DNA of 64,000 nt from an uncultured Methanosarcinales archaeon (GCA_965231065.1 OZ246410.1:193473-257472), one strand, 5' to 3'. Numbered from the stretch's first letter, positions 3,446 through 48,315 are shown. The notes: generated by a model not told the origin, from the sequence alone. A program made the numbers and translations.

Positions 3446-3466
3446 GTGATTTATTTTGAAAAAATG

Positions 3467-4086: not shown

Positions 4087-4337
4087 TCGTTCACAATCTC
4101 CACTTCAAGTCTTTGATGATTATCTTTATCAGAATACACTCTAAACAATAATTTATTTCCTTTCTTGAGCTTCAATCGTCTAGTTATGAACTGCGGTATA
4201 CGACAGAAGAGCTGACCTCTATTCTCACCCAGGATAGCTTCTTCTTGTTCTGGATAATGACCTTCCATGATCGCTTTAATATCACTCTTTCTCTGTTCTT
4301 CGGGTACTTCTTTAATTAATTCTGTCTTTTTCACCAT
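4083..4337 (-). CDS. Small AbrB/SpoVT (swapped-hairpin)-like DNA-binding protein
   Basis: 84 aa; C-terminal segment GQLFCRIPQFITRRLKLKKGNKLLFRVY resembles the AbrB/MazE-type looped-hinge helix motif (RIP...L.L..G..L). Confidence 0.35.
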   Translation of the reverse strand: MVKKTELIKEVPEEQRKSDIKAIMEGHYPEQEEAILGENRGQLFCRIPQFITRRLKLKKGNKLLFRVYSDKDNHQRLEVEIVNE

Positions 4338-4339
4338 TG

Positions 4340-5628
4340 TTATTTATCATATGAATACTTATATTTAAATTTAACTATTTCATATGAAAAATCGGAATGT
4401 TTAAATATATATTCACATTTATCATATGAATAATGAGAAAGATAAAAGAGATCGAATTTGAGATTGAAGTCTCGAATCAGGATATGGAATTTGTTAAAAT
4501 CAGGAAGAAGATTGTCTATGACTGAAATCCAAACACTACTAGAACCAAAGAGAAAGGTCTCATTACCAAAGAAGAGAAGAACCTATCCTCAGAAGTGGCA
4601 TTTCTATTATCAAGCATCACGAACAGAAAAGCTCATGTTCTTCCGAATCATCAAGGACGCTGTCGATTATCTCGATATTGAGGCAAAATACAAGGGAACA
4701 GGCAGACCACCAGCAAATATCAAGGATATTGTGAAAGCTCTCTGTATCAAAGGCTATTGCGGTCTATCGTCATGGAGAATCGAATCTGAATTGAAATTAG
4801 CACAAACCTTTGGAATTATTAATAAGGTCTATAAGCGTTCAGCCTTGAACAATTATCTCAATAACAAATATGTAGTTGAGATTCTGAAAGAACTTCTAAA
4901 GACCATTGCAGAACCATTACAGGAGATTGAAGAGACAGTTGCCATAGATGCGACAGGAATGGCAAGTTCCTATGGGAAAAAGAGATGGGTTGAAGTAAGA
5001 TTAACTCATCGTCTCAGAAAAGACTTTGCCAAACTCCATATAATTTCAGGAGTGAAATCAAATATAATCTTTTCTGCTGATGTTACGGAAGGAACTTCAA
5101 GCGATAGTCCACATCTTAAAGAGTTGCTTGAAGAATTACGATTCAAACCAAGAGAATTTGTTGCTGATGCCGGATACATATCAAAAGACAATGTTATTGC
5201 GATATCTGACAAAGGCATCAAGCCGTTCATCATGCCAAGAAAGAACATAACAGGACAAAGAGGCGGTAGTGCATCATGGAGATACTTAATTCGTCTTTGG
5301 AAAGAAAACAAAGAAATCTTTCTCATGCACTATCACGCAAGATCAAATGTCGAAAGTACATTTAGTATGTTGAAAAGAAAGTTCGGCGACTATGTCAGAG
5401 CAAAGAATATCATCGGGCAGACTGCCGACATATTATCAAAAGTTGTCTGTTTGAATGCAGTCATCCTATCAGAAGCAATGCTAGAATATGGAATTAGGAC
5501 ACGCTTCCAAAATGATGGATTTCCTTACACCCAAGAACAGCCATATAATGAGTTTGTGGTCAAATAGAGCCTTTATGGTCAAAGCCTTAAGAAACAAAAC
5601 GTTTAAATATGGGTATCATTAAAGAGTA
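4340..5628 (+). mobile_element. Approximate extent of an IS element carrying the IS4/IS5-family transposase; ends not resolved
   Basis: Transposase ORF flanked by AT-rich non-coding sequence containing gtttaaatat motifs on both sides (4399-4408 and 5601-5610) and three tcatatgaa repeats on the left; no clean terminal inverted repeat could be defined by eye. Confidence 0.4.
4458..5567 (+). CDS. DDE transposase, IS4/IS5 (DDE_Tnp_1) superfamily
   Basis: 369 aa; IDATG (D1), VADAGY (D2) and C-terminal YHARSNVESTFSMLKRKFG (the Y-x2-R-x3-E-x6-K signature of IS4/IS5 transposases). Confidence 0.8.
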   Translation: MRLKSRIRIWNLLKSGRRLSMTEIQTLLEPKRKVSLPKKRRTYPQKWHFYYQASRTEKLMFFRIIKDAVDYLDIEAKYKGTGRPPANIKDIVKALCIKGYCGLSSWRIESELKLAQTFGIINKVYKRSALNNYLNNKYVVEILKELLKTIAEPLQEIEETVAIDATGMASSYGKKRWVEVRLTHRLRKDFAKLHIISGVKSNIIFSADVTEGTSSDSPHLKELLEELRFKPREFVADAGYISKDNVIAISDKGIKPFIMPRKNITGQRGGSASWRYLIRLWKENKEIFLMHYHARSNVESTFSMLKRKFGDYVRAKNIIGQTADILSKVVCLNAVILSEAMLEYGIRTRFQNDGFPYTQEQPYNEFVVK

Positions 5629-8136
5629 GTGAAAATGTTGGGGCAAAAAAAGTTCATCGGACTGTTAAGTGTATTCTTGATCTTATTCAGCGTATTGCCA
5701 GCATTCGCTTTGCAAGAACAGTTTGATGTTGTCTCGGCAAAATCAATTGCTGCATGTTCAAATGGTGTCACGACAGATTCTATAACCATCAGAAACACCG
5801 GAGACATCGAAAGTGGATTCACTATTTCTGATTCAGGATCTGCTTCTGAGTTCACTACGTTTTCTGAGACATCGGTTTCAGTAAAACCAGGTGAATCAAA
5901 GACTGTATTTGCGTACATGAGTCCGAGTGGCAGAAAAGGCAACTATGATCTTAGCGCTATCATAACCAGTGCATTAGGAGAAAAGAAATCAGTTTCACAA
6001 TCAATTGAAGTGCAGAACTGCGCAAACATGCAAGTCTCGATCAAGACTCCGACAGTCACGGTAAATCCATGTCAGGTCTCTCAGTTTAGCTTCGATATCG
6101 CAAACACCGGTGATTATGCCGAGACATATGACTTCAAGGTCAAAGGACTCGAAGGATACACGACAGTAAGCACTAACAGCATATTCCTTGCTCCACAAGA
6201 GAGAAAGCAGATCGATGTGTTTGTCAATCCTTCCTGTAATATTTATGGACAAAAAGAATTGACATTGCAAACGACAGCACGAACAAGCCAATATGTAGCT
6301 CAAGCACACGTTGTGTTGAATATCCTACAGAATTATGAGTATGCAGTCGCAGTACAACCACAGGTAACTGTCTGTAACGCAAAGCAAATCGCAATTCCAA
6401 TCAGCATCGCGAACAAAGTACCGTTTGTGAATCAATATGACATCACAATCCATGGTCCAAATTTCTTGAAGCAGGAAGCACGACGTGTTGAACTCGGACC
6501 GTACATGAGCGGCATCACAAATCTATTCACCGTCGCAGATCATGCAGGAAGTTACCCGATCGACATCATTGTCAAATCAGTCAGGGGCGATGTCATCAAG
6601 GCAGGAACACAGAATCTTACGGTCGAGAACTGCTACGATGCGAATGTCAATATCGAGAATCCGTCTGATATCGTCATTGCAGGAAACAAAGCAAGCTACA
6701 AGGTCACGATCCTAAATCAAGGAACAAAAACAGACAGTTACACATTCGAACTGAATGCGCCTTCATTCGTTACATTCAGCGGCACGACACTACAGTTGAA
6801 TCCAAAAGAATCAAAGACGCTGACTCTTGAAGCGAATGTGCCTTCGAACGTCACCGGTTCATTTGTTGCAGTCCTGAAAGCAATTTCAAAAGAAACAGGC
6901 ATCGTCAAAGGGGACAAGATACAGATTAGTGTCTTGAGTCCTGACAAGGCATATAGCTTAAAGATATCACCACGACACTTACGAGTCTTATTCGGACAGG
7001 ATGCAGTCATACTTGGTCTGCAGAATAAAGGAATCTTACCAGCGACGTATGATTTCAGCTTGAAAGCACCATCATGGATGAAATTAGCGCAGAATTCCAT
7101 AACACTACAGCCAGGCGAAAAGAAAGATGTCTTTATCGCGACAAGTGCAGACAAGAAGAAGAATCAGGTCGCCAACTACGAAGCATCAGTCACTGCGACA
7201 GTCAAAGGGTCTGTCGGATTTGTCTCTAAATTCAACATCAGTTTACGAGAAGTGACATTGTTACAGGAGTTATATATTTTCTCTGTAAAATACATGTACT
7301 TCTTAATCGCAGGAGCTGTTGTACTCCTTATCTTACTATTCATCCTTATCTTTGGAAACAGAATCGCACGCAGATACAGAGCTTGGAAGATTAAGCGAGC
7401 TGAAATAGCGAAGATCAAGGCTGAATTGAAACAGCGAAGGAAAGAAGAGAAGCTTGCGAAGAAATTGATGAAGGAATCATTGAAACGATCACATCCTTCA
7501 AAATTCTGGAAGCGATTCTTTGGTGTCTTATTCATATTAGTTGCATTAGTATTGCTCACGGGCGCTGTCCTGTATGGAATCGGTTACGGTCCTATTGCTC
7601 AGGAATTCTTCAAACAGAAGCAGGCAGAGACTAAGTTTGCGCCGATCGTCAAGGTCAATACGACAGGATTGGAAGCATATGGCAATACGGTCATCGTACG
7701 AGGCACCGATGATGTCATTGTTCCTATCATCGTCAAGAATAATTTCGATAATGATCTCACCTTTGGTGTCGAAGTCAATCAGAAATGGATCAAGACCAAT
7801 GTTAAGGAGATTCGATTGGAAGCAGGCGACGAAGAAGTCATTAAATTACGAATAACACCGAGCGCGACTGAAGACGGCGTCTATAAGATCAGAGTCTCAG
7901 CACAGCTTGAACAAGAGGACAAGATCTACAACGAGGATATCACGCTCAACATCAGGAAAAAGAATGTACTGAGAGATATATTGAATTATGTACCGTATGT
8001 TGTTGGCGGAATCGTTGTTTTGATCGCTGGCTTATATTTCTATAAGAAACGAAAGAGAGAGTCAAGGGAAGCATTTGCTTCACGAAAGGCAAAACCTGCA
8101 CGGAAGATTGAAGTTTCTTTGCCGAAGAAAAGATAA
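5629..8136 (+). CDS. Large (835 aa) exported membrane/surface protein with signal peptide, at least four CARDB/Ig-like repeat modules, three TM segments and Lys/Arg-rich coiled regions
   Basis: N-terminal signal MKMLGQKKFIGLLSVFLILFSVLPAFA; repeated N-x-G...Y.F modules (SITIRNTGDIESGFTISDSG, SFDIANTGDYAETYDFKVKG, VTILNQGTKTDSYTFELNAPSF, LGLQNKGILPATYDFSLKAPSW); TM helices near residues 545-570, 625-650 and 785-805; K/R-rich stretches. Confidence 0.65.
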   Translation: MKMLGQKKFIGLLSVFLILFSVLPAFALQEQFDVVSAKSIAACSNGVTTDSITIRNTGDIESGFTISDSGSASEFTTFSETSVSVKPGESKTVFAYMSPSGRKGNYDLSAIITSALGEKKSVSQSIEVQNCANMQVSIKTPTVTVNPCQVSQFSFDIANTGDYAETYDFKVKGLEGYTTVSTNSIFLAPQERKQIDVFVNPSCNIYGQKELTLQTTARTSQYVAQAHVVLNILQNYEYAVAVQPQVTVCNAKQIAIPISIANKVPFVNQYDITIHGPNFLKQEARRVELGPYMSGITNLFTVADHAGSYPIDIIVKSVRGDVIKAGTQNLTVENCYDANVNIENPSDIVIAGNKASYKVTILNQGTKTDSYTFELNAPSFVTFSGTTLQLNPKESKTLTLEANVPSNVTGSFVAVLKAISKETGIVKGDKIQISVLSPDKAYSLKISPRHLRVLFGQDAVILGLQNKGILPATYDFSLKAPSWMKLAQNSITLQPGEKKDVFIATSADKKKNQVANYEASVTATVKGSVGFVSKFNISLREVTLLQELYIFSVKYMYFLIAGAVVLLILLFILIFGNRIARRYRAWKIKRAEIAKIKAELKQRRKEEKLAKKLMKESLKRSHPSKFWKRFFGVLFILVALVLLTGAVLYGIGYGPIAQEFFKQKQAETKFAPIVKVNTTGLEAYGNTVIVRGTDDVIVPIIVKNNFDNDLTFGVEVNQKWIKTNVKEIRLEAGDEEVIKLRITPSATEDGVYKIRVSAQLEQEDKIYNEDITLNIRKKNVLRDILNYVPYVVGGIVVLIAGLYFYKKRKRESREAFASRKAKPARKIEVSLPKKR

Positions 8137-8259: not shown

Positions 8260-8604
8260 TTATTTAAAACTTATCCTATCGCCAACAGACGTATTCAATG
8301 AGTTTCCTGCTGACAGTTCAATAATGTACTTTGCTCTGCCGGAAACACACCATCTCCATGGTTTCACATTTCTAACTATTTTCGTAACCTGTTTTTTTCC
8401 ATCCAAGAATAAAATATCAATAGCGAAACGCATAAAGAAGGTATGAATCATTTTATTATTTTCTATATAGAAATTAAATATCATACCACGACCTAGAAAA
8501 GTATCCTTTAATCTGAACATCAAACCAAGTGTTTGATGTAGTGGATTTCTCGCAAATTCAGCTTTTCTTGCCAAAATCCTGCTTTTTGTCACATTCCGTA
8601 TCAT
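8260..8604 (-). CDS. DUF192 (COG1430-type) protein of unknown function
   Basis: 114 aa; LGLMFR...GMIF.F......MHTFFMRFAIDILFLD...KPW pattern is characteristic of the DUF192 fold. Confidence 0.55.
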   Translation of the reverse strand: MIRNVTKSRILARKAEFARNPLHQTLGLMFRLKDTFLGRGMIFNFYIENNKMIHTFFMRFAIDILFLDGKKQVTKIVRNVKPWRWCVSGRAKYIIELSAGNSLNTSVGDRISFK

Positions 8605-8649
8605 CTAAAACCTCTTAATGGCCAGATATAGGCCTTAAATCATCAAATC

Positions 8650-8669
8650 TCCATCGGAAATGAAGGGGT
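8650..8669 (+). promoter_or_regulatory. Origin recognition box (ORB)-like element tccatcggaaatgaaggggt, an exact 20-nt match to the ORB at 20085-20104
   Basis: Dyad TCCA-NNN-GGAAA followed by a G-string AGGGGT, the architecture of archaeal Orc1/Cdc6 ORB sites; identical 20-mer (reverse complement) found in the cdc6-proximal origin region. Confidence 0.55.
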
Positions 8670-8766
8670 ATTTCCCTCTCCAAACTACATATTGACAAAA
8701 CAACAGTATTTATAAATAGGCGGTTGTTTATAAAACTTATAAATCAGCAGTAGTGGGGGGAAATGT

Positions 8767-9333
8767 ATGGCTGAAGAAAAACTTGACATAAAGATAGTAA
8801 ACATCGTTGTAGCGTCTTCTCTAGAACACGATATTCCTTTAGAAAAAATGGCTGCGACATTGAGTAATACCGAATATAATCCTGAGCAATTTCCAGGATT
8901 AGTCATCAGAATCAAAGAACCAAAGACATCTGCACTGATTTTCAGTTCAGGCAAGATCGTCTGCACTGGCGCAAAGACATTAGATGAAGTAAGAAAGTGT
9001 ATTGACAAGATCATACAGAGCCTTGAGAAGATCAATGTAAAGATCACGGTGACACCTGTCATCACGATCCAGAACATTGTCGCATCCGGTTCAATCGGCA
9101 TGGATTTGAACTTGAATTCATTGGCAATGAAGCTCGACAACACTGAATACGAACCAGAACAATTCCCAGGACTCGTATACAAAGTCAAGATCACAAAGAA
9201 TACTGACAAACCATTCAATGCGACATTCTTGTTGTTCAGCAACGGAAAGATCGTCTGTACCGGTACAAAGAGTGAAGAGCAGGTAAAGATAGCCGTACGA
9301 CAGTTGATTGAGAATTTGAAAAAGGTTAAATAA
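8767..9333 (+). CDS. tbp: TATA-box binding protein (TBP)
   Basis: 188 aa with two direct repeats (NTEYNPEQFPGLVIRIKEP...SGKIVCTGAKT / NTEYEPEQFPGLVYKVKIT...NGKIVCTGTKS), diagnostic of TBP. Confidence 0.92.
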   Translation: MAEEKLDIKIVNIVVASSLEHDIPLEKMAATLSNTEYNPEQFPGLVIRIKEPKTSALIFSSGKIVCTGAKTLDEVRKCIDKIIQSLEKINVKITVTPVITIQNIVASGSIGMDLNLNSLAMKLDNTEYEPEQFPGLVYKVKITKNTDKPFNATFLLFSNGKIVCTGTKSEEQVKIAVRQLIENLKKVK

Positions 9334-9342
9334 AAGTACTCT

Positions 9343-11376
9343 TTGGTGAAAGAGGGACCAATGGAGGCTGCTGAACAAGTTAGGAAGTTTGAAGAGTTTT
9401 TTGACATGCACTACAATGCAGAGCTGTCAGAACAGATACGTAAAGGCCTTGATTTTCTCATTGTTGATTTCTCTAAGCTATCCAAATTCGATCCTGAGCT
9501 CGCAACACTATTGCTCGAGGACCCTGAGAATGTTCTAAAAGCGGCAGAGATCGCTGTCAGCAATTTCACCACTACACGACAGCCTTCTAATTTTACTATC
9601 CGCGTCTCAAATCTTCCTGCGACTCAAAGAATAACCATCCGGGACATCAGAAGCAAACACATCGGGAAGATGCTTTCTCTCCAAGGACTAGTAAGACAGA
9701 AGACTGATGTCAGACCGCAGGTCACCAGCTCACGGTTTGAATGTCCTGCGTGCGGCACAGTCATCCCTATCCTGCAATTAGACTCAAAATTCAGAGAGCC
9801 AAGCAGCTGTGGCTGCGGAAGAAAGGGAAAATTCAGACTATTGAGCAAGGAATTAGTCGATGCGCAGGGAATTGTTCTGGAAGAGATTACTGATCAGCTC
9901 GATAGCGGAGAACAGCCAAAGAAAATCAACATATTGCTGAAGAAAGATCTCGTATCACCGTTATCAGATAAACGCACTAATCCTGGAACAAAGATAGCAA
10001 TCGTCGGTATCCTCAAGGAAGTACCCATCTTAGCGCGTGATGGTGGCAAACTCACTAAGTTCGATTTGCTGATTGAGTCAAACTATGTCGAATCCATGGA
10101 AGAAGGATTCAAGGATCTTTTAATCGATGAGGGAGATATGAAACAGATCGTCGCGCTTTCAAAAGACAAATATTTATTCGAGAAATTTACCCTCGGTATC
10201 GCACCAAGCATCTATGGTCACGAAAAGATCAAGGAAGCATTGATTCTTCAGTTAGTGGGCGGAGTCAGACAGATGCGAAAGGACGGTGTTGCGACCAGAG
10301 GAGATATCCACATACTTCTCATCGGTGATCCCGGATCGGGTAAATCTCAGTTGTTGAAACGAATCTCTGTTGTTGCACCAAAAGCACGATATGTGTCCGG
10401 AAAAGGCGCATCAGCAGCAGGATTGACTGCAGCAGTCGTAAAAGATGAATTTTTAGGCGGTTGGAGTCTGGAAGCTGGCGCGTTAGTACTAGCGAATCAG
10501 GGCATCTGCATCATAGATGAGTTAGATAAGATGGGCAAAGATGACCGGGCAGCGATGCACGAGGCACTGGAACAGCAGACAATCTCTATTTCCAAAGCAA
10601 ATATCCAAGCGACACTTCGTTCTGAAACAACATTATTGGCAGCTGCAAATCCGAAGATGGGCCGATTCGATCCATTCGAGCCGATCGGAAAGCAGATTGA
10701 TCTGCCAAATACATTGATCAACAGATTTGATCTCATCTTCCCGATCAAAGACCTGCCGGATGAAGATAAGGATGATAAATTAGCCAGTTTTATCCTTGGT
10801 CTGCACCAAAAAGAGGCAAAAGAACAGGAAATATCGAAAGATCTCCTCAGGAAATATATCGCCTATGCGAAACAGGCGATCGTCCCTAAGCTCACTGATG
10901 AAGCGATGGAAGAGATCAAGAGTTACTATATGAAGATGCGAGCGTCCGGAGAAGGAGAAGGCTCCTATCGTTCTGTTCCTATTTCAGCACGACAGCTTGA
11001 AGCATTAGTACGTCTTGCAGAAGCATCAGCGAAGTTGAGATTAAGCAGCATTGTGGAAAAGAAAGATGCGCAGCGTGCTGTTGAACTGTTACACTACTGT
11101 CTGAGCCAGATCGGTATCGATCCTGAGACAGGTAAGATCGATATCGACAGGATCACGACCGGAATCACCGCTACCCAACGAAATAAAGCGCACAGCATCA
11201 AAGAGATAATTGCTGAATTGGAATCTAAATTAGGAAAATCAATACCGATCGAAGAGATTATGAAGGAAGCAAAAACAAAAGGTATTGAGGATTCTCAGAC
11301 AGAAGAGATCATTGAACGTTTAAAGAGGGATGGCGACTTATTTGAACCGAGACATGGATTCATCTCGAGAATCTAG
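9343..11376 (+). CDS. mcm: MCM replicative helicase
   Basis: 677 aa; N-terminal C4 zinc motif CPACG...CGCG, Walker A GDPGSGKSQLL, Walker B CIIDELDKM, sensor/arginine finger SARQLEALVRLAEA, C-terminal winged helix. Confidence 0.93.
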   Translation: MVKEGPMEAAEQVRKFEEFFDMHYNAELSEQIRKGLDFLIVDFSKLSKFDPELATLLLEDPENVLKAAEIAVSNFTTTRQPSNFTIRVSNLPATQRITIRDIRSKHIGKMLSLQGLVRQKTDVRPQVTSSRFECPACGTVIPILQLDSKFREPSSCGCGRKGKFRLLSKELVDAQGIVLEEITDQLDSGEQPKKINILLKKDLVSPLSDKRTNPGTKIAIVGILKEVPILARDGGKLTKFDLLIESNYVESMEEGFKDLLIDEGDMKQIVALSKDKYLFEKFTLGIAPSIYGHEKIKEALILQLVGGVRQMRKDGVATRGDIHILLIGDPGSGKSQLLKRISVVAPKARYVSGKGASAAGLTAAVVKDEFLGGWSLEAGALVLANQGICIIDELDKMGKDDRAAMHEALEQQTISISKANIQATLRSETTLLAAANPKMGRFDPFEPIGKQIDLPNTLINRFDLIFPIKDLPDEDKDDKLASFILGLHQKEAKEQEISKDLLRKYIAYAKQAIVPKLTDEAMEEIKSYYMKMRASGEGEGSYRSVPISARQLEALVRLAEASAKLRLSSIVEKKDAQRAVELLHYCLSQIGIDPETGKIDIDRITTGITATQRNKAHSIKEIIAELESKLGKSIPIEEIMKEAKTKGIEDSQTEEIIERLKRDGDLFEPRHGFISRI

Positions 11377-11378
11377 AT

Positions 11379-12002
11379 ATGGACCAACCCACACAGTCAC
11401 AGCCCAGACAAACAGCGTACATCGTGAAGGTAGTGGATATTCTCAAAGGAGTGTTTGTTAAAGAATCAGGATGGAATCCGAGCTACATCATGATTGGTGA
11501 TAAACAGGTTGCAAGAGCGAATATTATTGGTGTGATTATCAGTATCGCTGATGCTGAAAATACACAGACCATTGTCATCGATGATGGCACTGGCAAGATC
11601 ACTGCACGGAGTTTTGAGAAAAAATTCACGACCGTAGTCGGTGATGCGGTGATGATGGTCGGCAGGATACGACAATACGGCTCTGAGATATATATAGCTC
11701 CCGAGATCATCAAGAAGATTGATCCGCGATGGAATGCAGTATGGAAGAAGCAAGCATTGAACAATGAAACTGCCGAGCCAAAGACATCAGTAGGACAAAA
11801 AACAGCTGAAATCAAAATCGATGATCATCGTAAGACCAGAACAGAATCAATCATCGATAAGATAAAAGAATTGGATGATGGCAGCGGTGCTGATTATGAA
11901 GCAATCATGAAATTTGTGTCTGATGAAAAGATACTCTCTAATCTCATCCTCAATGGCGAGATCTTTGAGATTAAACCAGGTAAATTAAAAGTTCTTGACT
12001 AA
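11379..12002 (+). CDS. OB-fold + C-terminal winged-helix protein (RPA32/Stn1-like architecture), translationally coupled to mcm
   Basis: 207 aa; OB-fold-like core ANIIGVIISI...TIVIDDGTGKITARSF...VGDAVMMVGRI..YGSEIYIAPEII; C-terminal ~60 aa resemble an RPA32C-type wH; starts 3 nt after the mcm stop. Confidence 0.45.
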   Translation: MDQPTQSQPRQTAYIVKVVDILKGVFVKESGWNPSYIMIGDKQVARANIIGVIISIADAENTQTIVIDDGTGKITARSFEKKFTTVVGDAVMMVGRIRQYGSEIYIAPEIIKKIDPRWNAVWKKQALNNETAEPKTSVGQKTAEIKIDDHRKTRTESIIDKIKELDDGSGADYEAIMKFVSDEKILSNLILNGEIFEIKPGKLKVLD

Positions 12003-12883
12003 TAGAAAAAGGGTGTGATGTATGCTTCGATGATGCCTGCCATCGCGAGGATGAGTAATGATAAAATAATAAGATTTGAAGTATCAAATGCGATCTTCTG
12101 GAAATTTTTTGTCATGATATCTTTTCTCACAATCGAGACTGAAATGATACCACCTGCTAACGCAGCCACAAAATAAGCCATGATTTCAGGGATACCGTGG
12201 ATGAAATAACGTAGTATTGCGCTTGAGTACCCGCCCAGATTAACCAGAACAACATTTCCTTTATTTGAGAAAACATAGCTCTTGATCAATGCACCCATGG
12301 CGACGGAGATAACGGATGCATTCCATGCAAGGATGAATATTGATCCTGCACCGAAGAAAAAGGAGAACAATAAGCAGAACGTCAGAACCTTGACATTATT
12401 AAAAAAGATCTTCGAGAATAATGCGAAGCCACTGGTAGCATAGCTATCGGCGATTCCGTAACTATCGACTCCGGTGACACTCCCCTGAATGGTGGCACCG
12501 CTATTGATATCTGAGATGGTTCGTGTCTGAACTGAAAATATTGATTGACTCATCTCAGAAGGAAGAACTACATACCAAGTCGTGAATGCCAAGGTAATGC
12601 CAATGAATAAAAATACGAAAAATAATAATGCTTTGCCGTGCTCTTCGAGCAATGAACGTTCTTCATCAATGTAATCAATCTTCTCTTCTTCCATCTTGAG
12701 CGTTGTGTAGATCAATGGTATGCACATCATCACCGTAAAGAATACAGAGATGAGTCCGGCATATTCCCTGAACACCCATAAGCTCAAAGCAAGTGCAACT
12801 GATGCATACAAAAATCCGAAAAAGAACATTTCCCATGGATGTTTTTCAGCTGTCCAGGGACTGATTAATGCCTCGAAGACCAT
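11999..12883 (-). CDS. DUF95/SpoIIM-family integral membrane protein
   Basis: 294 aa polytopic membrane protein; conserved C-terminal ILRYFIHGIPEIMAYFVAALAGGII segment typical of the DUF95 (stage II sporulation protein M-like) family. Confidence 0.55.
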   Translation of the reverse strand: MVFEALISPWTAEKHPWEMFFFGFLYASVALALSLWVFREYAGLISVFFTVMMCIPLIYTTLKMEEEKIDYIDEERSLLEEHGKALLFFVFLFIGITLAFTTWYVVLPSEMSQSIFSVQTRTISDINSGATIQGSVTGVDSYGIADSYATSGFALFSKIFFNNVKVLTFCLLFSFFFGAGSIFILAWNASVISVAMGALIKSYVFSNKGNVVLVNLGGYSSAILRYFIHGIPEIMAYFVAALAGGIISVSIVRKDIMTKNFQKIAFDTSNLIILSLLILAMAGIIEAYITPFFY

Positions 12884-12972
12884 TCATTAAAAGTCGTATA
12901 CAGCGTATTTAAAGCTTTCGCAGGGTCTGTAAAAACGAAGCTTTTAAATAACAACTGAGCCTCAGAAATCGC

Positions 12973-13380
12973 ATGGCTGAGATGTATGAAACATTGCTGA
13001 AACGAGGCATGAAACAGCTTCCTGAAGTCGTAGTAGAGATATCTCGGTTCGAGACACCGAAAGTCAAAGGACATATCCAGGGCAATAAGACGATCATCAG
13101 CAACATCAATGAGATTGTCGAGAAATTACGAAGACCTGCTGCGCATATTGTCAAATTCTTGCTCAAAGAATTAGCGACACCGGGCGAGATACGGGGAAAT
13201 TTCTTGGTACTAGGAACAAAAATATCTGCTTCACGAGTCAATGAAAAACTAGAAGAGTATGTGCAGAGATACGTCATTTGCCCGGAATGCAAGAAACCTG
13301 ATACGAAACTGAAGAAAGAAGGCGGATTCACATTCATCATATGTCAGGCATGCGGTGCCAAGAAAACTGTAAAAGAATGA
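12973..13380 (+). CDS. Translation initiation factor 2 beta subunit (aIF2-beta)
   Basis: 135 aa; C-terminal C4 zinc ribbon CPECKKPDT...CQACG and the conserved central helix of e/aIF2-beta. Confidence 0.85.
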   Translation: MAEMYETLLKRGMKQLPEVVVEISRFETPKVKGHIQGNKTIISNINEIVEKLRRPAAHIVKFLLKELATPGEIRGNFLVLGTKISASRVNEKLEEYVQRYVICPECKKPDTKLKKEGGFTFIICQACGAKKTVKE

Positions 13381-13673
13381 TTGTAAAGATACACGAAACA
13401 AAAAATGGAGTGGTCGTCGCAGTCGTAGATAAAGAGCTCATCGGTCAGGTATTCGAAGAAGGAGATCTGCAATTGGATCTGACTTCAAAATTCTATAAAG
13501 GAGATCAGAAAATGCCGGAAGAGATCGGCGATCTCATGCGAAATGCATACGGTGTAAATCTTGTTGGTGAACGAACCATCGCATTAGCGATCGAAGAAGG
13601 CATCATTGATGAAACAGCAGTCAGAAAGATAAAAAACACCCCATACTATCAAGGAACGGTCGATGCTGATTAA
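13377..13673 (+). CDS. DUF424 (COG2412-type) archaeal protein of unknown function
   Basis: About 98 aa starting at MIVKIHETKNG; VVAVVDKELIGQVFEEGDLQL...FYKGDQ pattern matches the DUF424 family; start overlaps the aIF2-beta stop. Confidence 0.45.
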   Translation: MIVKIHETKNGVVVAVVDKELIGQVFEEGDLQLDLTSKFYKGDQKMPEEIGDLMRNAYGVNLVGERTIALAIEEGIIDETAVRKIKNTPYYQGTVDAD

Positions 13674-16600
13674 CCGAACCATGCTCCGAGTCCGACTTGT
13701 TTCTCTTTGTCCCTGCCAAACATCGATTCCAGCCTATATCTGATGAGATCAAGACTGTCTTTCAGATAATCATCACAGCCATATCTCTGTGCGAGACTGA
13801 TGGAGGGTTCAAGATACTTTACGATAGAACCTTCTGAGATGGTAAATATCAACCGACCGCCACATTTGGTGCATTTTCCAACGAGAGGGGTACGACGATA
13901 GCTCTCATTGCAATTAGAGCATCTGAATTTCTGCATCGAGAACTTTCGAAGATTACCTCGTGTATCTTTCATGAAATGTTTTTCGATGACCAATCGAGCG
14001 ACATCGGACATATTGACAGCTCTGATCTTTCGTGCAAGTTCCATCTGTCCCTTTAGTTTTTCTTCAAGCGTCGGTAGTGTTTTATATGCAGAACAATGAG
14101 CTCCTGAGTTAAAATCAGAGACATCATGAGTGAATCCGATACCTTCATACTGGTTTGGCGTGCCTAAGAATTCTCCCAATCGTTTGATACCGACTTCCCA
14201 GGGAGGACTGATCTTCTGGGCTGCTTCGTAGAATTCGAGAGGATATTTCCAGACTACATCGAGTTTATGGATCATATCATCGACTTCTGCGGGGTTGAGG
14301 ATCGCAGTCAGGACTAATGGTGCATCCATAGTTCTTCCGCCTCTGTTGTCAGGTAGAAATTGACGAGAAAAATTCAAAAGTCCATCCATGAGGAGCATAA
14401 CGCAGCACTCATCACCATCACAATCACGTCTCATCGCTGCGTGATACAACGGATGCGCAAGCATGCCCGCGGTCTGTGAAAATCCGATGATCCGTGCGAC
14501 TGTTCCTGCAGAAATATGGGGAGCCAGTCCAATAACGAGGTGTCCGATCAGATCATCTGACTTTTTCAGATTGTAGTACGGTTCTAATCCATAAAATCGT
14601 ACCAAGAGATCATCTACGAAATTGGCGACATTGAATAGTACTTCGCTTGCGGGAGAATCAAGGGTATCTTTTCCTGCAGGAAGAATCATATCCTGTGGCT
14701 TGAGCTCGATGACCTGATCATCATCTACTATCTCATCGCCATGGATATCAACGGTGTATCCAAGTTCCTTGATCTTTGCGACTGTATTTCCTATTTCCTT
14801 CAGTTTGAAATGGGTGATCGGTATCTCTGACATATCGTATCGGGTAGTGCCGTCTTTATTGACAGATACATCATGTCGTGCGCGGAGTATTCCTTTTGCA
14901 AAATGTTCTGGTAGATGATCTTTATTTGCTGTTCCTTTGACTCCTTTGATCATATCGGGGACATTTTTCAGATCAAGCATTTTGAGCACACTATCGTAAA
15001 TTCTGGTAAAATTTATTTCTGTCTGTGCATACGTCCTGTTTTTGCCATGCTGTGGGCAGGTGTCTTTCATCTGTACGCCACAGCTAGCACAATAGAAGCG
15101 TTTCTCTGTCTTCTGTTTACATTGCTCACAAACATTGAAGACAGTATCCCGTTTACAAGCGATGCAATGTCGTAATGGAAATTCGGCATTCACCTTGCCT
15201 ATACCAAGTACTGATTGGAAGGATCGCATTCTGCCACCTTCTTCTCCGACAGGAAATAATACATGCGGTGCACCGATGAGCTTACGCATCTTCGCTTTCT
15301 CAGGGCGTCCCATTCGGGCACCGATGAAGGTTCCTGATTTATCACGGATGGTGATGCCGGAAATGATGCTGAGCAATTCAATGATTGATTTATCTTTACC
15401 TTCTTCGATTATTGCTCTTCGTGCTGGGTTTTTCAGACCAAGCGTATATAAGAATGCCTCTGCATCATCTTTTTCGACGATCGCATCTTCAGTCGCCATG
15501 CTATGCGGCAAACCGATGAGCTCGAGATATCTCTTCTGAGGATCTCCTTTCTTTACCGGAACGATTATCTTCTTTACTTTGTCATCATCGATCTCGATTT
15601 TTGACTTTGATAATAGATCATAAACCTCAAGAAGCTGTTCATGAGACAGAACATTCCAATGATAGGTATATCGCGGATGCAATGGTACATTTAATTTCTC
15701 AGCCATCTTGATTGCTGCTTTAGCAGATAAATGAGCACTTGTTGGATTCTTGAACAGGTGAGCAAGAGTTTCGGTAGGTATTTCGACAAGTGCGGAGAGT
15801 TTCTCAATGTCCAGCGTCCCGAACATACCAATGACTGCTTTCTCGATCTCCTGCACATACCACTCTTCACAATAACCGCAGGGAACTAACGGATGTGCAC
15901 GATCAAAGAAATCACCATAGGAAAACAACATATCTCCCAAGTAGAGTATCTCATCGACCTCTGGGTTAAGCCTCTTAGCTTCATTAAAATCATCAAGTCT
16001 GATCACAGAGCCATTTTCCATCAATACAATCGGGCCTTCAATGGAATCGCAAACTGCGATCGCTGCTGCTTTTCCCGGGCGCTCTACCTTTAGTTGTGTC
16101 CCGATAGCTACGTAATCATCTAAGACAGCCATTGTTGCCGGATGAATACAGGCGGCAGAGTATCCGCTGACTCGTGATCGCCCATACCGTAATCTGAATC
16201 CGCCATGAGCGAGTGGATGTGTCAATACTGGTCTGCCACCAACTAAATCAACGATAAAAGTATTGTCTGCGGAAACTTTCGGCTTGTCATCTTTTTTAGT
16301 TTCTGTCTTTTTTCCTGATTTAACTTCTTTCTGAATCTTCAAAAATGAACCGAGGAAATCCCAATCTAAGCCAAAATCCTTGCCCCATTTCTGTAGTTCT
16401 TTCCATACTTTCGGCGCTTTGAGTGCAAGCATGGAAAGGACCAAACACATCCCTCCTCGTATTTTGTTTGTCGGAATTCGGGGAAGATCCTTGTAGTTGC
16501 TCACATCGAGTTTCTCAGTTGGATCGCCGGTAATCTCGATCGGCAATATCTTTGCAAGATGTTTTGTCTCTTGCTCACTGGGGCGATATTGCAGATTGGT

Positions 16601-17221
16601 GACTCGCTCGTGATAATCCTCGAGCTCTGTAAAAAATCGATTTACTTCATTTGCATCTGGATCATAGACATCATACCCCATGATCTTCCGTATATAATCA
16701 GCCAGTACAACCGAGAACGCAGCGGCGGTGCCTCCAGCGCCTCTCACCGGACCGGCATAGCTCATCGCAAGATATTCCTTGCCATCTTTTCGTTTTTTAA
16801 TATGCAGTTCAACAAATCCTTCTAGCGGAGCTGAGACGATACCAACCGTGTGGTATGCAAATCCTGTCCTGATGCCAACTTCCATCGCTTCACGTTTGTC
16901 TTTGAACGTACAGAATTTTTCTTTTGCTACCTCTTCAGCGATGAGCAAGGCTACTTCCCATGAAAGTGGTTTATACTTCTGCTCGAGTTCATGAATCCTC
17001 TGCGGAACTCCTTTACCAATCAGTTGCGGTGCGACCGCAGAGATTAAACCCTCTACACGCTCTGCCATATTTCTTGCGAGAGGAATATCAACCTTCGGCT
17101 CGGGATCAAATCCCTGTGCACGTGCCTTTGCTGCGATGAGATATGCTTTGTCAGTATCTCTCTCAAGTGCATCAAAGTAGCTCTTCATCTGCTCGCTGCA
17201 GACAATTGAAGTGCCAGTCAT
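13670..17221 (-). CDS. DNA polymerase II (PolD) large catalytic subunit DP2
   Basis: 1183 aa; long conserved PolD-L architecture with multiple zinc-binding Cys clusters (CxxC...CxxC) and a C-terminal Cys cluster; no intein evident; 4-nt overlap with the DP1 gene. Confidence 0.92.
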   Translation of the reverse strand: MTGTSIVCSEQMKSYFDALERDTDKAYLIAAKARAQGFDPEPKVDIPLARNMAERVEGLISAVAPQLIGKGVPQRIHELEQKYKPLSWEVALLIAEEVAKEKFCTFKDKREAMEVGIRTGFAYHTVGIVSAPLEGFVELHIKKRKDGKEYLAMSYAGPVRGAGGTAAAFSVVLADYIRKIMGYDVYDPDANEVNRFFTELEDYHERVTNLQYRPSEQETKHLAKILPIEITGDPTEKLDVSNYKDLPRIPTNKIRGGMCLVLSMLALKAPKVWKELQKWGKDFGLDWDFLGSFLKIQKEVKSGKKTETKKDDKPKVSADNTFIVDLVGGRPVLTHPLAHGGFRLRYGRSRVSGYSAACIHPATMAVLDDYVAIGTQLKVERPGKAAAIAVCDSIEGPIVLMENGSVIRLDDFNEAKRLNPEVDEILYLGDMLFSYGDFFDRAHPLVPCGYCEEWYVQEIEKAVIGMFGTLDIEKLSALVEIPTETLAHLFKNPTSAHLSAKAAIKMAEKLNVPLHPRYTYHWNVLSHEQLLEVYDLLSKSKIEIDDDKVKKIIVPVKKGDPQKRYLELIGLPHSMATEDAIVEKDDAEAFLYTLGLKNPARRAIIEEGKDKSIIELLSIISGITIRDKSGTFIGARMGRPEKAKMRKLIGAPHVLFPVGEEGGRMRSFQSVLGIGKVNAEFPLRHCIACKRDTVFNVCEQCKQKTEKRFYCASCGVQMKDTCPQHGKNRTYAQTEINFTRIYDSVLKMLDLKNVPDMIKGVKGTANKDHLPEHFAKGILRARHDVSVNKDGTTRYDMSEIPITHFKLKEIGNTVAKIKELGYTVDIHGDEIVDDDQVIELKPQDMILPAGKDTLDSPASEVLFNVANFVDDLLVRFYGLEPYYNLKKSDDLIGHLVIGLAPHISAGTVARIIGFSQTAGMLAHPLYHAAMRRDCDGDECCVMLLMDGLLNFSRQFLPDNRGGRTMDAPLVLTAILNPAEVDDMIHKLDVVWKYPLEFYEAAQKISPPWEVGIKRLGEFLGTPNQYEGIGFTHDVSDFNSGAHCSAYKTLPTLEEKLKGQMELARKIRAVNMSDVARLVIEKHFMKDTRGNLRKFSMQKFRCSNCNESYRRTPLVGKCTKCGGRLIFTISEGSIVKYLEPSISLAQRYGCDDYLKDSLDLIRYRLESMFGRDKEKQVGLGAWFG

Positions 17222-18684
17222 TGTTCAGTCTGTCCTGAGAAGTTCAAGACTTTTACCTCTCGCGTCTTTAAGTTGATGATCGGGATTCGTCCAGGATCAG
17301 GAACATGACCTACTTTCTCCTGGAATGATGTTCTTGATTGGAAGCAACTACCGATGATGCCGGTGATGACGCCTTTGTAGGTGAATACCGCTGACTTGTG
17401 AACATCACCCGATACAAAGATATCAGGAATTTTGTCTATGACAAGGTGATCCTGCTCTGTTGGGAGATGTGGGTTACCATCATAGGTCGGTGCAAGATGT
17501 CTCTTTTGCAATAATAATCTCATGACCAGATCAGCACGTTCACTGATATTTGGTTTTTGAATACGAATGCTTTCTACCTTGTCTGCATAATGATTGTATG
17601 AATATCCGTGATACATAAGGATGTCAAAACCTGCAAATCCATCACGGCTTGCGATGTTAACTAGCGCTGGATTGCTCACCATGGTGACATTGGGCATATC
17701 CCAAAGCCCTTCACAGTATTCCCGTGGCAACGGAGGCTGCGGTTCAGCAAGATGGACTACATCGTGATTACCGGGACAAACGATGATCTTGATATCCTGT
17801 GGGATTTGTTTGATATATTCTATAAACTTAGTATACTGACCGCGATAGGTGAGAATATCGAGCTCCTCTTTCTGCGAGGGATACACTGAAATACCATCAA
17901 CAAGATCGCCGGTCACTACGACATACTTCACTTTTGATGCGATATCACGCTGACGTTCGTTGCCAACCTCGCCTCTGAGCCAATTGACAAATTTAACAAA
18001 TTCCTCCTCGAGAAACTGTTTTGATCCCACATGGATATCTGAGATGAACAGTACATACTCTTCGACGGGTGATTTTTTAATTTCCTTGGTCACAGGAATA
18101 TCAGGGAAATATAACTCATTCGCAAAAATGATATTCTTGCCCATCGAGCCGGAGATACCGATGACCTCATCATCCACAATATCATTTGCCCGTGCGAGCA
18201 GATCCGCTTTATTTTTACTGAAAAAGACCTTGATCGATCCGGTCGGATCTTCCGCAGTCAACATGACGCCGCTTTTAGTCTCTTCTTTGGTATACACCAT
18301 GCCAATGATCGATACTTGTTCACGTTCTGGTTTGCCTTTCAATCGCCCGATAGAGACTGCATTCTCGAGGTTGTTCCGTTGCTGAAGAATGCGTTTCAAG
18401 ATGCTATATCGTGAATTAAAGTGGTTGATGAAATCCTGGACCACGATCTTTTTCGGCTGTTCTTTATACGAGAAGACCACTCTTACTTTTCCGTCGCGGC
18501 CTGACTGACTCGGCAATGGTCTCGGATCAGTCTGTTGTTCCAGTCTTTTGTTGATGAGATCAAATACCTGCCGAGTATCATTCGCCGCATTGAGAATATC
18601 GAGGAATTCAGGCTCAAGAAGTACTTTTTGCTCAAGCAGAAACTGTACAATTCTCTTTTTTTTATGCTGTAACTCTTGATTCAT
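17218..18684 (-). CDS. DNA polymerase II (PolD) small exonuclease subunit DP1
   Basis: 488 aa; N-terminal OB region and C-terminal calcineurin-like phosphoesterase motifs (FISDIHVGS, VVVTGDLVDG, VCPGNHD, GHYH) typical of PolD DP1. Confidence 0.9.
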   Translation of the reverse strand: MNQELQHKKKRIVQFLLEQKVLLEPEFLDILNAANDTRQVFDLINKRLEQQTDPRPLPSQSGRDGKVRVVFSYKEQPKKIVVQDFINHFNSRYSILKRILQQRNNLENAVSIGRLKGKPEREQVSIIGMVYTKEETKSGVMLTAEDPTGSIKVFFSKNKADLLARANDIVDDEVIGISGSMGKNIIFANELYFPDIPVTKEIKKSPVEEYVLFISDIHVGSKQFLEEEFVKFVNWLRGEVGNERQRDIASKVKYVVVTGDLVDGISVYPSQKEELDILTYRGQYTKFIEYIKQIPQDIKIIVCPGNHDVVHLAEPQPPLPREYCEGLWDMPNVTMVSNPALVNIASRDGFAGFDILMYHGYSYNHYADKVESIRIQKPNISERADLVMRLLLQKRHLAPTYDGNPHLPTEQDHLVIDKIPDIFVSGDVHKSAVFTYKGVITGIIGSCFQSRTSFQEKVGHVPDPGRIPIINLKTREVKVLNFSGQTEQ

Positions 18685-18739: not shown

Positions 18740-19978
18740 CTATGCTACAAATCCAAAACTCTTTTCCAATATTTCTTTCGCTTTTGCCTTGGTTGTGTTC
18801 TGGATTGCTAATGTTATCTTTCGTGTCCTTCCATATCGTCCCTTGGAGACGACCTTCCCATTGATGATACCGAGCATATCAAGTTCGGCGATGATATCAG
18901 AGACTCTCCGCTGTGTTAAGGGACGCAGATGGATATTGTCGCATATTTTTTTGTATAATTCATAGATATCACCGGTAAATAAATTTTCGTCCCGGTCCTT
19001 TGATTTCAGGTCAGCGGCATCCTCATTCATCCGCATGATCGAGTATAATATTGCCTGGTGCTGCTTTGGCTGTGTGGTAATGATATCAAGTATCCTATCT
19101 TTTTCAATCTTTTCTTCTGCGATATCAATATGTTTGATAGTGACTTTCTGTTCATCGTTTCGTTCTGCTAATTCTCCTGCGACTCTTAACAATTCCAAAG
19201 CTCTTCGTGCATCGCCGTGTTCTCGTGCTGCATAAGCAGCGCATTTCTCGATGACTCCCATCTCGACAGATCCTGGCTTGAAAGCCTCTTTTGCCCGTTG
19301 ATTAAGGATATCTTGCAATTGTAATGCGTTGTATGGCGGAAATACGATCTCTTCTTCAGATAAAGAACTCTTTACCCGTGGATCAAGCATATCAGTAAAG
19401 ACAAGGCTATTTGAAATACCAATCAATGATATCTGCGCGTTTTTTAGTTCAGAATTAATTCTAGTGAGTGTGTAGAGAATCTCATCTCCTGTCTTTTCAA
19501 CCAATTGATCAATCTCATCAAGGATAAGCAAGAGGAGTTGTTTTTTACTGTCGACTAGATGGGTAAAGATACGATAGACTTCTTGCGTCGGAAGTCCTGT
19601 TTTCGGTACTTCGCTGCCCATCGAACGTATCAATTCAGCGATGAGCCGATATTCAGTGTCAGCGGTATTTCTTAACTTACAGTTAACATAGATAACTGAA
19701 AGATTGATGTTTCGTTCTTTCGCTAATGTAAGTAGATTGTTAGTGACATATCGCACTGAGAGTGTTTTTCCGCTGCCAGTCTTTCCATAGATGAATAGAT
19801 TGGATGGTTTTTGGTATAATAGTGCAGAACCGAGTATATTCGCTACCTGCTCGATCTGCTGATCCCTATGTTGGATCGTATCGGGATTGTAATTCGACTG
19901 GAGTGTTGATTTATCGCTAAAGAGAAATTCTTTTTTTAGAAAATTTTCGAAGAATCCTTTTAGCTTGTTTTCTTTCAT
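18740..19978 (-). CDS. cdc6: Orc1/Cdc6 replication initiator
   Basis: 412 aa; AAA+ Walker A GKTGSGKTLSV, Walker B LLILDEID, C-terminal winged helix; sits beside an ORB-containing AT-rich region and upstream of the polD genes. Confidence 0.92.
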   Translation of the reverse strand: MKENKLKGFFENFLKKEFLFSDKSTLQSNYNPDTIQHRDQQIEQVANILGSALLYQKPSNLFIYGKTGSGKTLSVRYVTNNLLTLAKERNINLSVIYVNCKLRNTADTEYRLIAELIRSMGSEVPKTGLPTQEVYRIFTHLVDSKKQLLLLILDEIDQLVEKTGDEILYTLTRINSELKNAQISLIGISNSLVFTDMLDPRVKSSLSEEEIVFPPYNALQLQDILNQRAKEAFKPGSVEMGVIEKCAAYAAREHGDARRALELLRVAGELAERNDEQKVTIKHIDIAEEKIEKDRILDIITTQPKQHQAILYSIMRMNEDAADLKSKDRDENLFTGDIYELYKKICDNIHLRPLTQRRVSDIIAELDMLGIINGKVVSKGRYGRTRKITLAIQNTTKAKAKEILEKSFGFVA

Positions 19979-20484
19979 GTCTACCCCTTTAATTCTCCAA
20001 ACGAAATAAAGGTATATAAAAGTTGTGATTTGGTGTTTAAAGACGTTTATAGTGTGATATATGTAGTTTAGAGTATATACACCGACCCCTTCATTTCCGA
20101 TGGAAACCTAGTGTAGTGTAGTGTGTATGTGTTAATCAATAATTAATTATAAACAATTTACTTATTTTATACTTTCATCATCAAATCACTTACTACTAAC
20201 TACTTATATTGTTTTCTATATAGAAAATAAATAATATAAATAATAAATAACTTTTCAGTTAAATTTTAATAGAGGTTGAGTGTGTTGTAAATGTTGTTTA
20301 AAGAAGTTCTAGTAGAAACGAAGGGGTGGGTGTGATATATATTATTTTTGCTATTTCATAGTAGCAAAATAATGAAAAGGTTTATATATTAGTTTAAAGT
20401 TTGTCATCCAGAGATTACGATAAAATCGCTTTAAACGATTCCTGTAAGGTGTATAGGCGCTAAGTACTTAGAGGAAACAAAACC
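19979..20484. promoter_or_regulatory. Probable chromosomal replication origin (oriC): AT-rich DUE flanked by inverted ORB elements at 20085-20104 (minus sense) and 20304-20327 (plus sense)
   Basis: About 500-nt non-coding AT-rich spacer upstream of cdc6; accccttcatttccgatgga at 20085-20104 and aagttctagtagaaacgaaggggt at 20304-20327 both carry the ORB G-string GAAA-N-GAAGGGGT in opposite orientation around the most AT-rich 200 nt. Confidence 0.6.
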
Positions 20485-21300
20485 ATGATTGTAAAGAAAG
20501 AATTTTTGAAGAAACTAAAAGACTTCGGTCTCAATACTTACGAAAGTAAATTATGGACAGCACTTCTTTCAAGAGGAGTCTCAACTGCTGGAGAACTTTC
20601 TGATATCGCAAATGTTCCGCGATCACGATCATATGATGTTCTAGAGTCATTAGAGAAGAAAGGTTTCATCATAATGAAGATCGGCAAGCCGATAAAATAC
20701 ATCGCAGTACCTCCAGATGAGATCGTCACTCGTGTCAAGAAGAAAATAGAAGATGAATCTAAATCACAACTAAGCGCTCTTGATGAATTAAAAGAATCAG
20801 ACATTCTTGATGAGTTGAAATTATTGCATAAGAATGGCGTCGAACTTATTGAGCCAGGTGATTTAACTGGTATCATAAAGGGAAGAAATAATCTCTATAA
20901 TCACTTGGAAGCTATGATGAAATCAGCTACAAAATCAATCTGTATCTTCACTACAAAAGATGGCCTTATCAGGAAATCAGATTCATTCAAGGTTGTTTTC
21001 AAGAAATTGGCTGAGCGAGGTATTTCAATCAGAATCGCAGCTCCTATTGACGCTGAAGTCGCTTCGATTGTGGCTTCTTTGAAGGATGTCGCAACCGTTA
21101 AGAATATTCCTGATGTGGCTGGCAGATATTGCTTGATTGACGGCAAGGAAGCGATCTTTATGCTTCTTGATGATGCTGAAGTCCACCCTTCATACGACTG
21201 TGGTGTTTGGATCAACACTCCTTATTTCGCAAAGGCATTGCAAGCGCAGTTCGATGCTCTTTGGAATGTTTCTGAAGAGAAAATGGTTAAGAGAAACTGA
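20485..21300 (+). CDS. TrmB-family transcriptional regulator (N-terminal wHTH + C-terminal effector-binding domain)
   Basis: 271 aa; N-terminal LNTYESKLWTALLSRGVSTAGELSDIANVPRSRSYDVLESLEKKGF is a textbook TrmB HTH; paralog of 28198-29004. Confidence 0.7.
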   Translation: MIVKKEFLKKLKDFGLNTYESKLWTALLSRGVSTAGELSDIANVPRSRSYDVLESLEKKGFIIMKIGKPIKYIAVPPDEIVTRVKKKIEDESKSQLSALDELKESDILDELKLLHKNGVELIEPGDLTGIIKGRNNLYNHLEAMMKSATKSICIFTTKDGLIRKSDSFKVVFKKLAERGISIRIAAPIDAEVASIVASLKDVATVKNIPDVAGRYCLIDGKEAIFMLLDDAEVHPSYDCGVWINTPYFAKALQAQFDALWNVSEEKMVKRN

Positions 21301-43717: not shown

Positions 43718-43810
43718 TATTTTGATTAATTTAGGAGCTTATTTAAACGTATTTAATTTCTATATAGAAAATAAATATGATTAAATACACACAACTTTCA
43801 TTTTATTTTT

Positions 43811-47508: not shown

Positions 47509-47518
47509 TGTCCCCTTT

Positions 47519-47953: not shown

Positions 47954-47954
47954 A

Positions 47955-48314: not shown

Positions 48315-48315
48315 T

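Follow-up and report, generated by a model that had tools for sequence, protein, structure and literature searches.

The 506-nt spacer at 19979-20484 of the 64-kb stretch of DNA analyzed here (OZ246410.1:193473-257472, the window) very probably serves a Woesearchaeota-like DPANN archaeon as its chromosomal origin of replication (oriC). The predicted origin is of the Orc1-1 type, in which the initiator binds origin recognition boxes (ORBs). The analysis established which sequence elements are present, how significant they are and how far relatives conserve them and their polarity; it also established the initiator's clade and the adjoining string of replication genes. The elements of the spacer and the initiator gene are located in the window as follows.

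19979-20484, intergenic spacer of 506 nt between cdc6 (minus strand) and a TrmB-family gene (plus strand)
20085-20106, minus strand, proximal box ORB-A, TTTCCATCGGAAATGAAGGGGT, with the G-string toward cdc6
20107-20305, AT-rich duplex unwinding element between the ORBs
20212-20227, conserved palindrome TTTTCTATATAGAAAA at mid-element, where an accessory factor may bind
20306-20327, plus strand, distal box ORB-B, GTTCTAGTAGAAACGAAGGGGT, inverted relative to ORB-A, with the G-string toward trmB
18740-19978, minus strand, orc1/cdc6 initiator gene assigned to the Orc1-1 clade, 412 aa, beginning 1 nt from the spacer

A sequence-only reading of the window had proposed an Orc1/Cdc6-dependent oriC in an AT-rich spacer of about 500 nt upstream of cdc6. 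It described two ORBs in opposite orientation, each with a dyad and GGGGT, which bracket the most AT-rich segment of about 200 nt. These claims held, and the positions of the boxes were right to 1-2 nt. The spacer contains 71.9% A+T, compared to 58.8% in the whole window. A crude gene prediction ranks it among the window's three longest gaps, and of the remaining two, one is a prediction artefact. ORB-A consists of the perfect dyad TTTCC-ATC-GGAAA followed by GGGGT, ORB-B of the dyad TTCTA-G-TAGAA followed by GGGGT. The spacing between dyad and GGGGT is 4 nt in both boxes. A repeat search identified the pair as the inverted repeat I1 (20079-20097 and 20315-20333) with 19 nt and 89% complementarity. 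The likeness of the two boxes continues past the G-string as GGGGTsGGTGT and then as an AT-rich run.

The significance of the boxes was assessed with a weight matrix of 32 columns, derived from 18 ORBs upstream of cdc6 in 12 related genomes. The window was excluded from the matrix, which avoids circularity. ORB-A scored 33.1 bits and ORB-B 27.6 bits, whereas 50 shuffles of the window reached a maximum of 22.1 bits and a mean best score of 11.6 bits. Across the whole window, four matches of at least 12 bits were obtained: ORB-A, ORB-B, 8643-8674 (30.2 bits) and 8032-8063 (19.5 bits). The third of these is an isolated ORB upstream of the tbp and mcm genes. The fourth match, on the plus strand, has a dyad without a G-string and is treated as a probable chance match, because its score lies below the shuffle maximum. 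It coincides with the 3′ end of an open reading frame (ORF) for an 835-aa protein with Ig domains, about 600 nt from the ORB upstream of tbp. A GGGGT at 19983-19987 was rejected as a third full ORB; its spacing differs, it obtained no matrix score and it may be a ribosome-binding site. Conservation there is confined to the dyad at 19995-20006. Dyad scans of the spacer yielded only the two ORBs, and mini-ORB clusters were not found in it. The 22-bp oligonucleotide TCTCCACAGGAAACGGAGGGGT is presumably the ORB of the PDB entry 2V1U. ORB-A agrees with this oligonucleotide (PMC5376975) at 17 of 22 positions, and the ORB upstream of tbp at 18 of 22. The boxes also fit the published consensus GTTCCAGTGGAAAC-AAA----GGGGG (PMC1868953).

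The 198 nt between the ORBs contain 79.3% A+T. According to nearest-neighbour energies, the least stable 200-bp duplex of the window is located at 20119-20319 (z = 4.98) and the least stable 100 bp at 20142-20242 (85% A+T, z = 4.87). Both segments fall between the ORBs. The GC content decreases to 15% at 20150-20249.

Conserved elements in the spacer were identified in an alignment with the three closest relatives (L001-L003), and each element was then checked in a wider set. The palindrome TTTTCTATATAGAAAA is kept in the window and in these relatives except for two substitutions, an A for T in L003 and a G for A in L002; the surrounding element is unalignable. The pattern T[TA]C[TC]ATAT[AT]GAA occurs between the ORBs of eight of 12 relatives and is absent from the remaining 117.5 kb of the same loci. 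Shuffling resulted in a mean of 0.025 loci. The motif probably binds an accessory origin factor. A frequent genome-wide motif was considered and rejected, as the intergenic candidates left in the window are the one at 43757 and, less well, the one at 59729. The former is an exact 14-nt copy (43757-43770) that shares the AATAAATA extension and occupies the centre of a divergent 93-nt spacer at 43.7 kb. The latter spans 59729-59742. Another exact copy at 8460-8473 is explained by coding, because it falls inside the DUF192 gene, where it specifies the residues FYIEN (FNIEN in L022).

The initiator is assigned by protein comparison to the ORB-binding Orc1-1 clade. Its best relatives in the PDB are Orc1-1 of Sulfolobus solfataricus (2QBY_A, 8.5e-102) and ORC1 of Aeropyrum pernix (2V1U_A, 2.5e-94). 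Weaker matches were obtained with other paralogues, namely Orc1-3 (2QBY_B, 3.6e-40), 1FNN (8.9e-20) and ORC2 of A. pernix (1W5S, 1.9e-15); 1FNN and 1W5S presumably represent the Orc1-2 clade. The protein matches the Pfam families Cdc6_lid (7e-26) and Cdc6_C (2.5e-25) as well as AAA domains. It passes the NCBIfam equivalog NF001625 'ORC1-type DNA replication protein' with 515.9 bits at a cutoff of 501. A phmmer search with Cdc6 against all six-frame ORFs of the window found the gene itself only and no second cdc6 paralogue. ORC1/Cdc6 has been reported in the single-copy core of the Nanobdellota (bioRxiv 10.64898/2026.05.13.725050).

A scan with the Cdc6 protein, restricted to one genome per species, provided 20 relatives (L001-L020) with 55-86% identity. 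The label is Woesearchaeota or Nanoarchaeota for most of them and a different one for a few. On the basis of these relatives, the host is a Woesearchaeota-like DPANN archaeon and not a member of the Thermococcales. An identical Cdc6 sequence is present in the assemblies of SRR8931244 and SRR8931243.

The arrangement at the origin is conserved. Both strands of 19 relatives, in total 174 kb, were scanned for ORBs of at least 17 bits, and nearly all matches are located upstream of cdc6. Of the relatives, 14 offer 450 nt or more of sequence on this side of the gene, and every one of them has the proximal ORB on the cdc6 strand at a distance of 52-174 nt from the start. A distal, inverted ORB is present in 12 of these 14; it starts 212-549 nt upstream in ten and further out in two. 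The polarity is constant, with the dyads inward and the G-strings outward. The segments between the ORBs have 73-97% A+T, always above the average of their own locus. The claim of an Orc1/Cdc6-dependent oriC is thus borne out by the recurrence of ORB pair, polarity and gene string in Woesearchaeota relatives and by an initiator of the Orc1-1 clade. Descriptions of ORBs in DPANN or Woesearchaeota were not found in the literature searched.

Beside the origin, cdc6 and the genes for both subunits of PolD form a string on the minus strand, and a regulator gene diverges from it.

17218-18684, minus strand, PolD small subunit DP1, 488 aa, Pfam DNA_pol_E_B and Metallophos
13670-17221, minus strand, PolD large subunit DP2, 1183 aa, Pfam PolC_DP2 N-terminal, central and catalytic domains
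20485-21300, plus strand, TrmB-family transcription regulator, Pfam TrmB 4e-20, divergent from cdc6

DP2 passes the NCBIfam model NF003103 with 1386 bits (cutoff 1269), whereas DP1 reaches 443.2 bits with the small-subunit model NF003118, slightly below the cutoff of 445. The gap between cdc6 and DP1 is 55 nt, and the start of DP2 overlaps the stop of DP1 by 4 nt. The co-directional arrangement with adjacent or overlapping genes, as described in the sequence-only reading, is therefore correct, but the string runs leftward on the minus strand. The order cdc6-DP1 is found in all of L001-L020 except L003, in which the contig ends inside cdc6. DP2 is next after DP1 wherever the locus of a relative reaches that far. 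The trmB gene adjoins the origin solely in the closest relatives (L001-L004). Non-coding RNAs were not detected in the spacer by an Rfam scan at gathering thresholds; it yielded three tRNAs only, all elsewhere in the window.

The classification as Pyrococcus-type, also made from the sequence alone, stands in part. As in Pyrococcus abyssi and P. furiosus, the origin is located directly upstream of cdc6, which is followed by dp1 and dp2. The Pyrococcus oriC contains two long ORBs as an inverted repeat around AT-rich DNA (PMC1904270), as is the case here. The ORBs themselves differ: 34 bp with a 9-nt spacer in Pyrococcus, but a 4-nt spacer here. In oligonucleotides of P. furiosus ORB1 and ORB2, 9 nt separate dyad and G-run (PMC1904270). 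Pyrococcus has in addition many 13-bp mini-ORBs and a second ORB cluster in dp1, neither of which was found in the window. The dp1 gene here has no matrix match of at least 12 bits and a single dyad with one mismatch (17314-17325). The gene order is thus Pyrococcus-like, whereas the ORB spacing, the missing clusters in spacer and dp1 and a lineage outside the Thermococcales are not. The description that fits best is a minimal origin with two ORBs, of the Orc1-1 type known from Sulfolobus oriC1 and Aeropyrum, in a Pyrococcus-like gene context.

Sulfolobus oriC1 shares the Orc1-1 initiator, which is the closest solved relative, and two inverted ORBs around an AT-rich element beside the initiator gene. 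In Sulfolobus oriC1, the inverted ORB2 and ORB3 lie on either side of the unwinding element; origin activity depends on each of them, and they guide MCM to the DNA in between (PMC12141716). A conserved motif near the middle of the element is found where oriC1 has its 11-bp ucm, part of the ucm/UBP module of the Sulfolobales; this likeness is one of position. The unit of two ORBs and unwinding element measures about 243 bp here and about 130 bp in Sulfolobus oriC1. A third full ORB beside the pair is missing here, where only a degenerate dyad over the cdc6 start is found. The flanking operon carries PolD, in contrast to Sulfolobus; the Crenarchaeota are without PolD (PMC3914693). Haloferax volcanii oriC1 resembles the window in an orc1-adjacent spacer, an AT-rich element amid ORBs with mini-ORB core and G-string, and dp1 nearby. 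It differs in a 1,360-bp spacer, several direct repeats and a halophile-specific extended G-string (PMC1868953), in comparison to which the element here is minimal. The initiator is highly similar to that of A. pernix (2V1U_A, 2.5e-94), with which the window shares the 22-bp layout of dyad, 4-nt spacer and GGGGT. The lineages differ, DPANN here and Crenarchaeota in the case of A. pernix. A. pernix oriC1 has four ORBs, compared to the two seen here.

A mechanism can be proposed for the predicted origin. Orc1 binding, MCM loading, origin firing and transcriptional feedback would proceed as in Sulfolobus, Aeropyrum and Pyrococcus, from which they are transferred by analogy. The adjacent cdc6 would supply the Orc1-1 orthologue. 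Single Orc1 molecules would bind the two 22-bp ORBs, which have a fixed opposite polarity with dyads inward and G-strings outward. ATP-bound Orc1 would recruit MCM hexamers onto the AT-rich element of about 200 bp, where the duplex would open and bidirectional replication would begin. The TTTTCTATATAGAAAA motif near the middle of this element is probably bound by an accessory factor. Through the degenerate ORB dyad at the predicted start of cdc6 transcription, Orc1 probably feeds back on the cdc6-polD operon.

The predicted promoter elements on both sides of the origin core comprise three features.

20013-20021, minus strand, predicted cdc6 TATA box TTTTATATA, within the block AACTTTTATATACCTT that is invariant in comparison with L001-L003
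19995-20006, minus strand, ORB-like dyad TTTCGTTTGGAG, located 3′ of the cdc6 TATA box and 5′ of the start codon
20346-20390, plus strand, trmB regulatory region outside the origin core

The cdc6 TATA box is predicted about 39 nt 5′ of the ATG. The pattern YTTCNNNTGGAR occurs at most 90 nt upstream of cdc6 in ten of 19 relatives and in the window, against 0.0094 per region expected from the remainder of these loci. It also matches the dyads of true ORBs at 20094 and 8649. The dyad at 19995-20006 is a candidate autoregulatory operator that Orc1 may bind; its location over the predicted cdc6 transcription start would suit a repressor site. In the trmB region, a palindrome TTTTGCTA-N8-TAGCAAAA (20346-20369) is followed by a TATA-like box (20381-20390) about 100 nt before trmB. 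L001-L003 share this block almost unchanged, and the palindrome, given where it lies relative to trmB, is likely the operator of the TrmB-family gene.

A third full ORB was identified 11.4 kb from the origin.

8648-8669, plus strand, isolated third ORB TCTCCATCGGAAATGAAGGGGT, 30.2 bits, upstream of tbp-mcm
8767-9333, plus strand, tbp, Pfam TBP 6.3e-59
9343-11376, plus strand, mcm directly after tbp, Pfam MCM 1.2e-88, MCM_OB, MCM_lid and archaeal MCM winged helix

This box is identical to ORB-A over 20 nt, and tbp-mcm is presumably the operon it targets. It lies in a 162-nt spacer between a DUF192 gene (8260-8604, minus strand) and the TBP gene, 39 nt upstream of a TATA-like box (8709-8718). 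A survey covered 80 related metagenome loci (L022-L101) centred on TBP homologues. Most loci of sufficient length show the order tbp-mcm. At least 450 nt upstream of tbp was available in 64 loci. Of these, 36 have an ORB of at least 14 bits within 600 nt upstream, in each case on the tbp strand, and none has an inverted partner on the opposite strand. In controls, four of 527 tiles reached at least 14 bits. Measured to a conserved AAAAGTATTTATAAATA-like promoter, the spacing of the ORB shows two sharp peaks, at 38 nt (10 cases) and at 52 nt (16 cases). Another ORB, 84-85 nt further upstream, is present in four tbp loci. An ORF of 207 aa follows mcm in the window (11379-12002, plus strand) and in most relatives; it has a sub-threshold match to RMI2 (OB-fold) and no NCBIfam match, and it may encode an uncharacterized replication-associated OB-fold protein.

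The location of the tbp-mcm block varies. In L009, L015, L016 and L018, a tbp-mcm-orf207 block is located directly upstream of cdc6, across the origin. It is followed by SpoIIM in L009, L015 and L016 and by a TrmB-like gene in L018. In the window (8767-13673), L044 and L065, the tbp-mcm block lies beyond DP2. The origin-proximal region is rearranged, while the replication genes stay close to oriC. Depending on the relative, the block is found to one side of oriC or the other, and the box is therefore linked to the promoter and not to the origin. Judged by its sequence context, the ORB upstream of tbp is probably an Orc1-responsive promoter element or an accessory Orc1 site and not a second origin, because it has neither an inverted partner nor a long AT-rich stretch nor an adjoining cdc6. 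An ORB at an mcm promoter was not found in the literature searched. The nearest precedent for an Orc1-family protein at promoters is Orc1-2 of Sulfolobus, a non-initiator paralogue that acts as transcription regulator (PMC9738581). In contrast to the Orc1-2 case, the box here is a full origin-type ORB, and the sole Orc1 in the window belongs to the initiator (Orc1-1) clade.

Several points weigh against the assignment as chromosomal origin. A change of the GC skew at 20.2 kb was not detected in the window with four-fold sites and gene strand as covariate (side term -0.029 +/- 0.025). The side term of the AT skew at four-fold sites was significant, yet its best breakpoint at 39-48 kb does not correspond to a replication signal. 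It is attributed to gene content and not to replication, because the breakpoint lies at a presumed ribosomal-protein operon. Right of the origin, 33 of 51 genes are encoded on the minus strand, head-on to a rightward fork, which is a mild objection. Cells of Thermococcales can grow without the origin (PMC11005403), and a conserved oriC need therefore not be the sole route to the start of replication. The window is a view of 64 kb of the genome, and other origins may lie elsewhere. With no skew signal in the window, the status as main or only origin is one that we infer. Since skew strength and even polarity vary among archaea (PMC1868953), the skew within 64 kb does not refute an origin. The raw cumulative GC skew was discarded as origin signal; its curve merely tracks the gene strand.

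Two side observations concern the wider window. A long, tightly packed gene string on the minus strand (45361-58417), presumed to be the ribosomal-protein operon, is oriented head-on to a fork from 20.2 kb. Two tRNA genes, adjoined by the second least stable AT-rich segment and then by a DDE_Tnp_1 transposase gene, are located in the region of 3371-3557, 4305-4505 and 4458-5567, and no ORB was found there. One of the two tRNA genes is 91 nt long and possibly has an intron or a long arm.

In the best of the alternative explanations, the ORBs are purely transcriptional operators through which Orc1 regulates the divergent cdc6-polD and trmB promoters, as it may at tbp-mcm, and replication starts elsewhere or by recombination. 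The G-string of each ORB faces a TATA-like box about 54-63 nt away, in the same orientation as and with a spacing similar to that of the ORB upstream of tbp (38 or 52 nt). The missing skew signal and the growth of Thermococcales without origin (PMC11005403) would fit as well. However, an inverted partner, present in 12 of 14 relatives at cdc6 and in 0 of 64 at tbp-mcm, always encloses a highly AT-rich segment with a conserved central motif of its own. The arrangement at cdc6 is the one required for origin function in Sulfolobus, and for regulation alone, the least stable 200-bp element of the window would be superfluous. The operator explanation is therefore considered improbable. Still less probable is a role of the spacer as secondary origin or as one of several, with the main origin either at the tbp-mcm ORB or beyond the window. 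The 64 kb seen, the third full ORB at 8648-8669 and the mostly head-on genes right of 20.2 kb would agree with this, as would the many archaea with multiple origins (PMC12141716). Against it stand the one cdc6 in the window, the reported single-copy status of ORC1/Cdc6 in the phylum, and the nature of the site at 8.6 kb as a lone ORB in a 162-nt spacer without inverted partner. The sequence-only reading had named a GC-skew switch elsewhere, together with further cdc6 paralogues that have ORB clusters of their own, as a counter-argument; the window holds no such paralogue, and its tbp ORB is single with no cdc6 nearby. That the boxes are an accidental inverted repeat between divergent promoters in AT-rich DNA, or the termini of a small mobile element, is hardly credible. 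AT-rich spacers do yield many weak inverted repeats (34 pairs in 661 nt). However, the ORB scores from a matrix built on other genomes beat every shuffle, the ORBs recur with the same position and polarity in relatives with otherwise unalignable spacers, and the window lacks the scattered extra copies of the boxes that a mobile element would leave.

An Orc1/ORB-type oriC thus remains the preferred reading of the spacer. On this reading, the window comes from the origin region of a DPANN chromosome. The kind of origin itself is ordinary and already known, and the recurring ORB at tbp-mcm is the more interesting by-product. It is tentatively suggested, at somewhat less than even confidence, that Orc1-1 of the Woesearchaeales is also a promoter-bound regulator of a small replication regulon and that the mid-element motif is the functional counterpart of ucm. 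The regulon is suggested because the ORB upstream of tbp is fixed in orientation and spacing, and because ORB-A and the dyad at the start frame the cdc6-polD promoter similarly. If Orc1 binds the tbp ORB, the wiring would be simple, leading from the initiator to the expression of the helicase and a basal transcription factor. In such a regulon, how much helicase, TBP, polymerase and initiator is supplied would be linked directly with initiator occupancy. For a large uncultured lineage, the spacer provides a testable origin anatomy, consisting of ORB consensus, polarity, unwinding-element motif and a possible autoregulatory dyad. In practice, it can be used in orienting and rotating closed genomes of Nanobdellota and in deriving growth rates from metagenome coverage.

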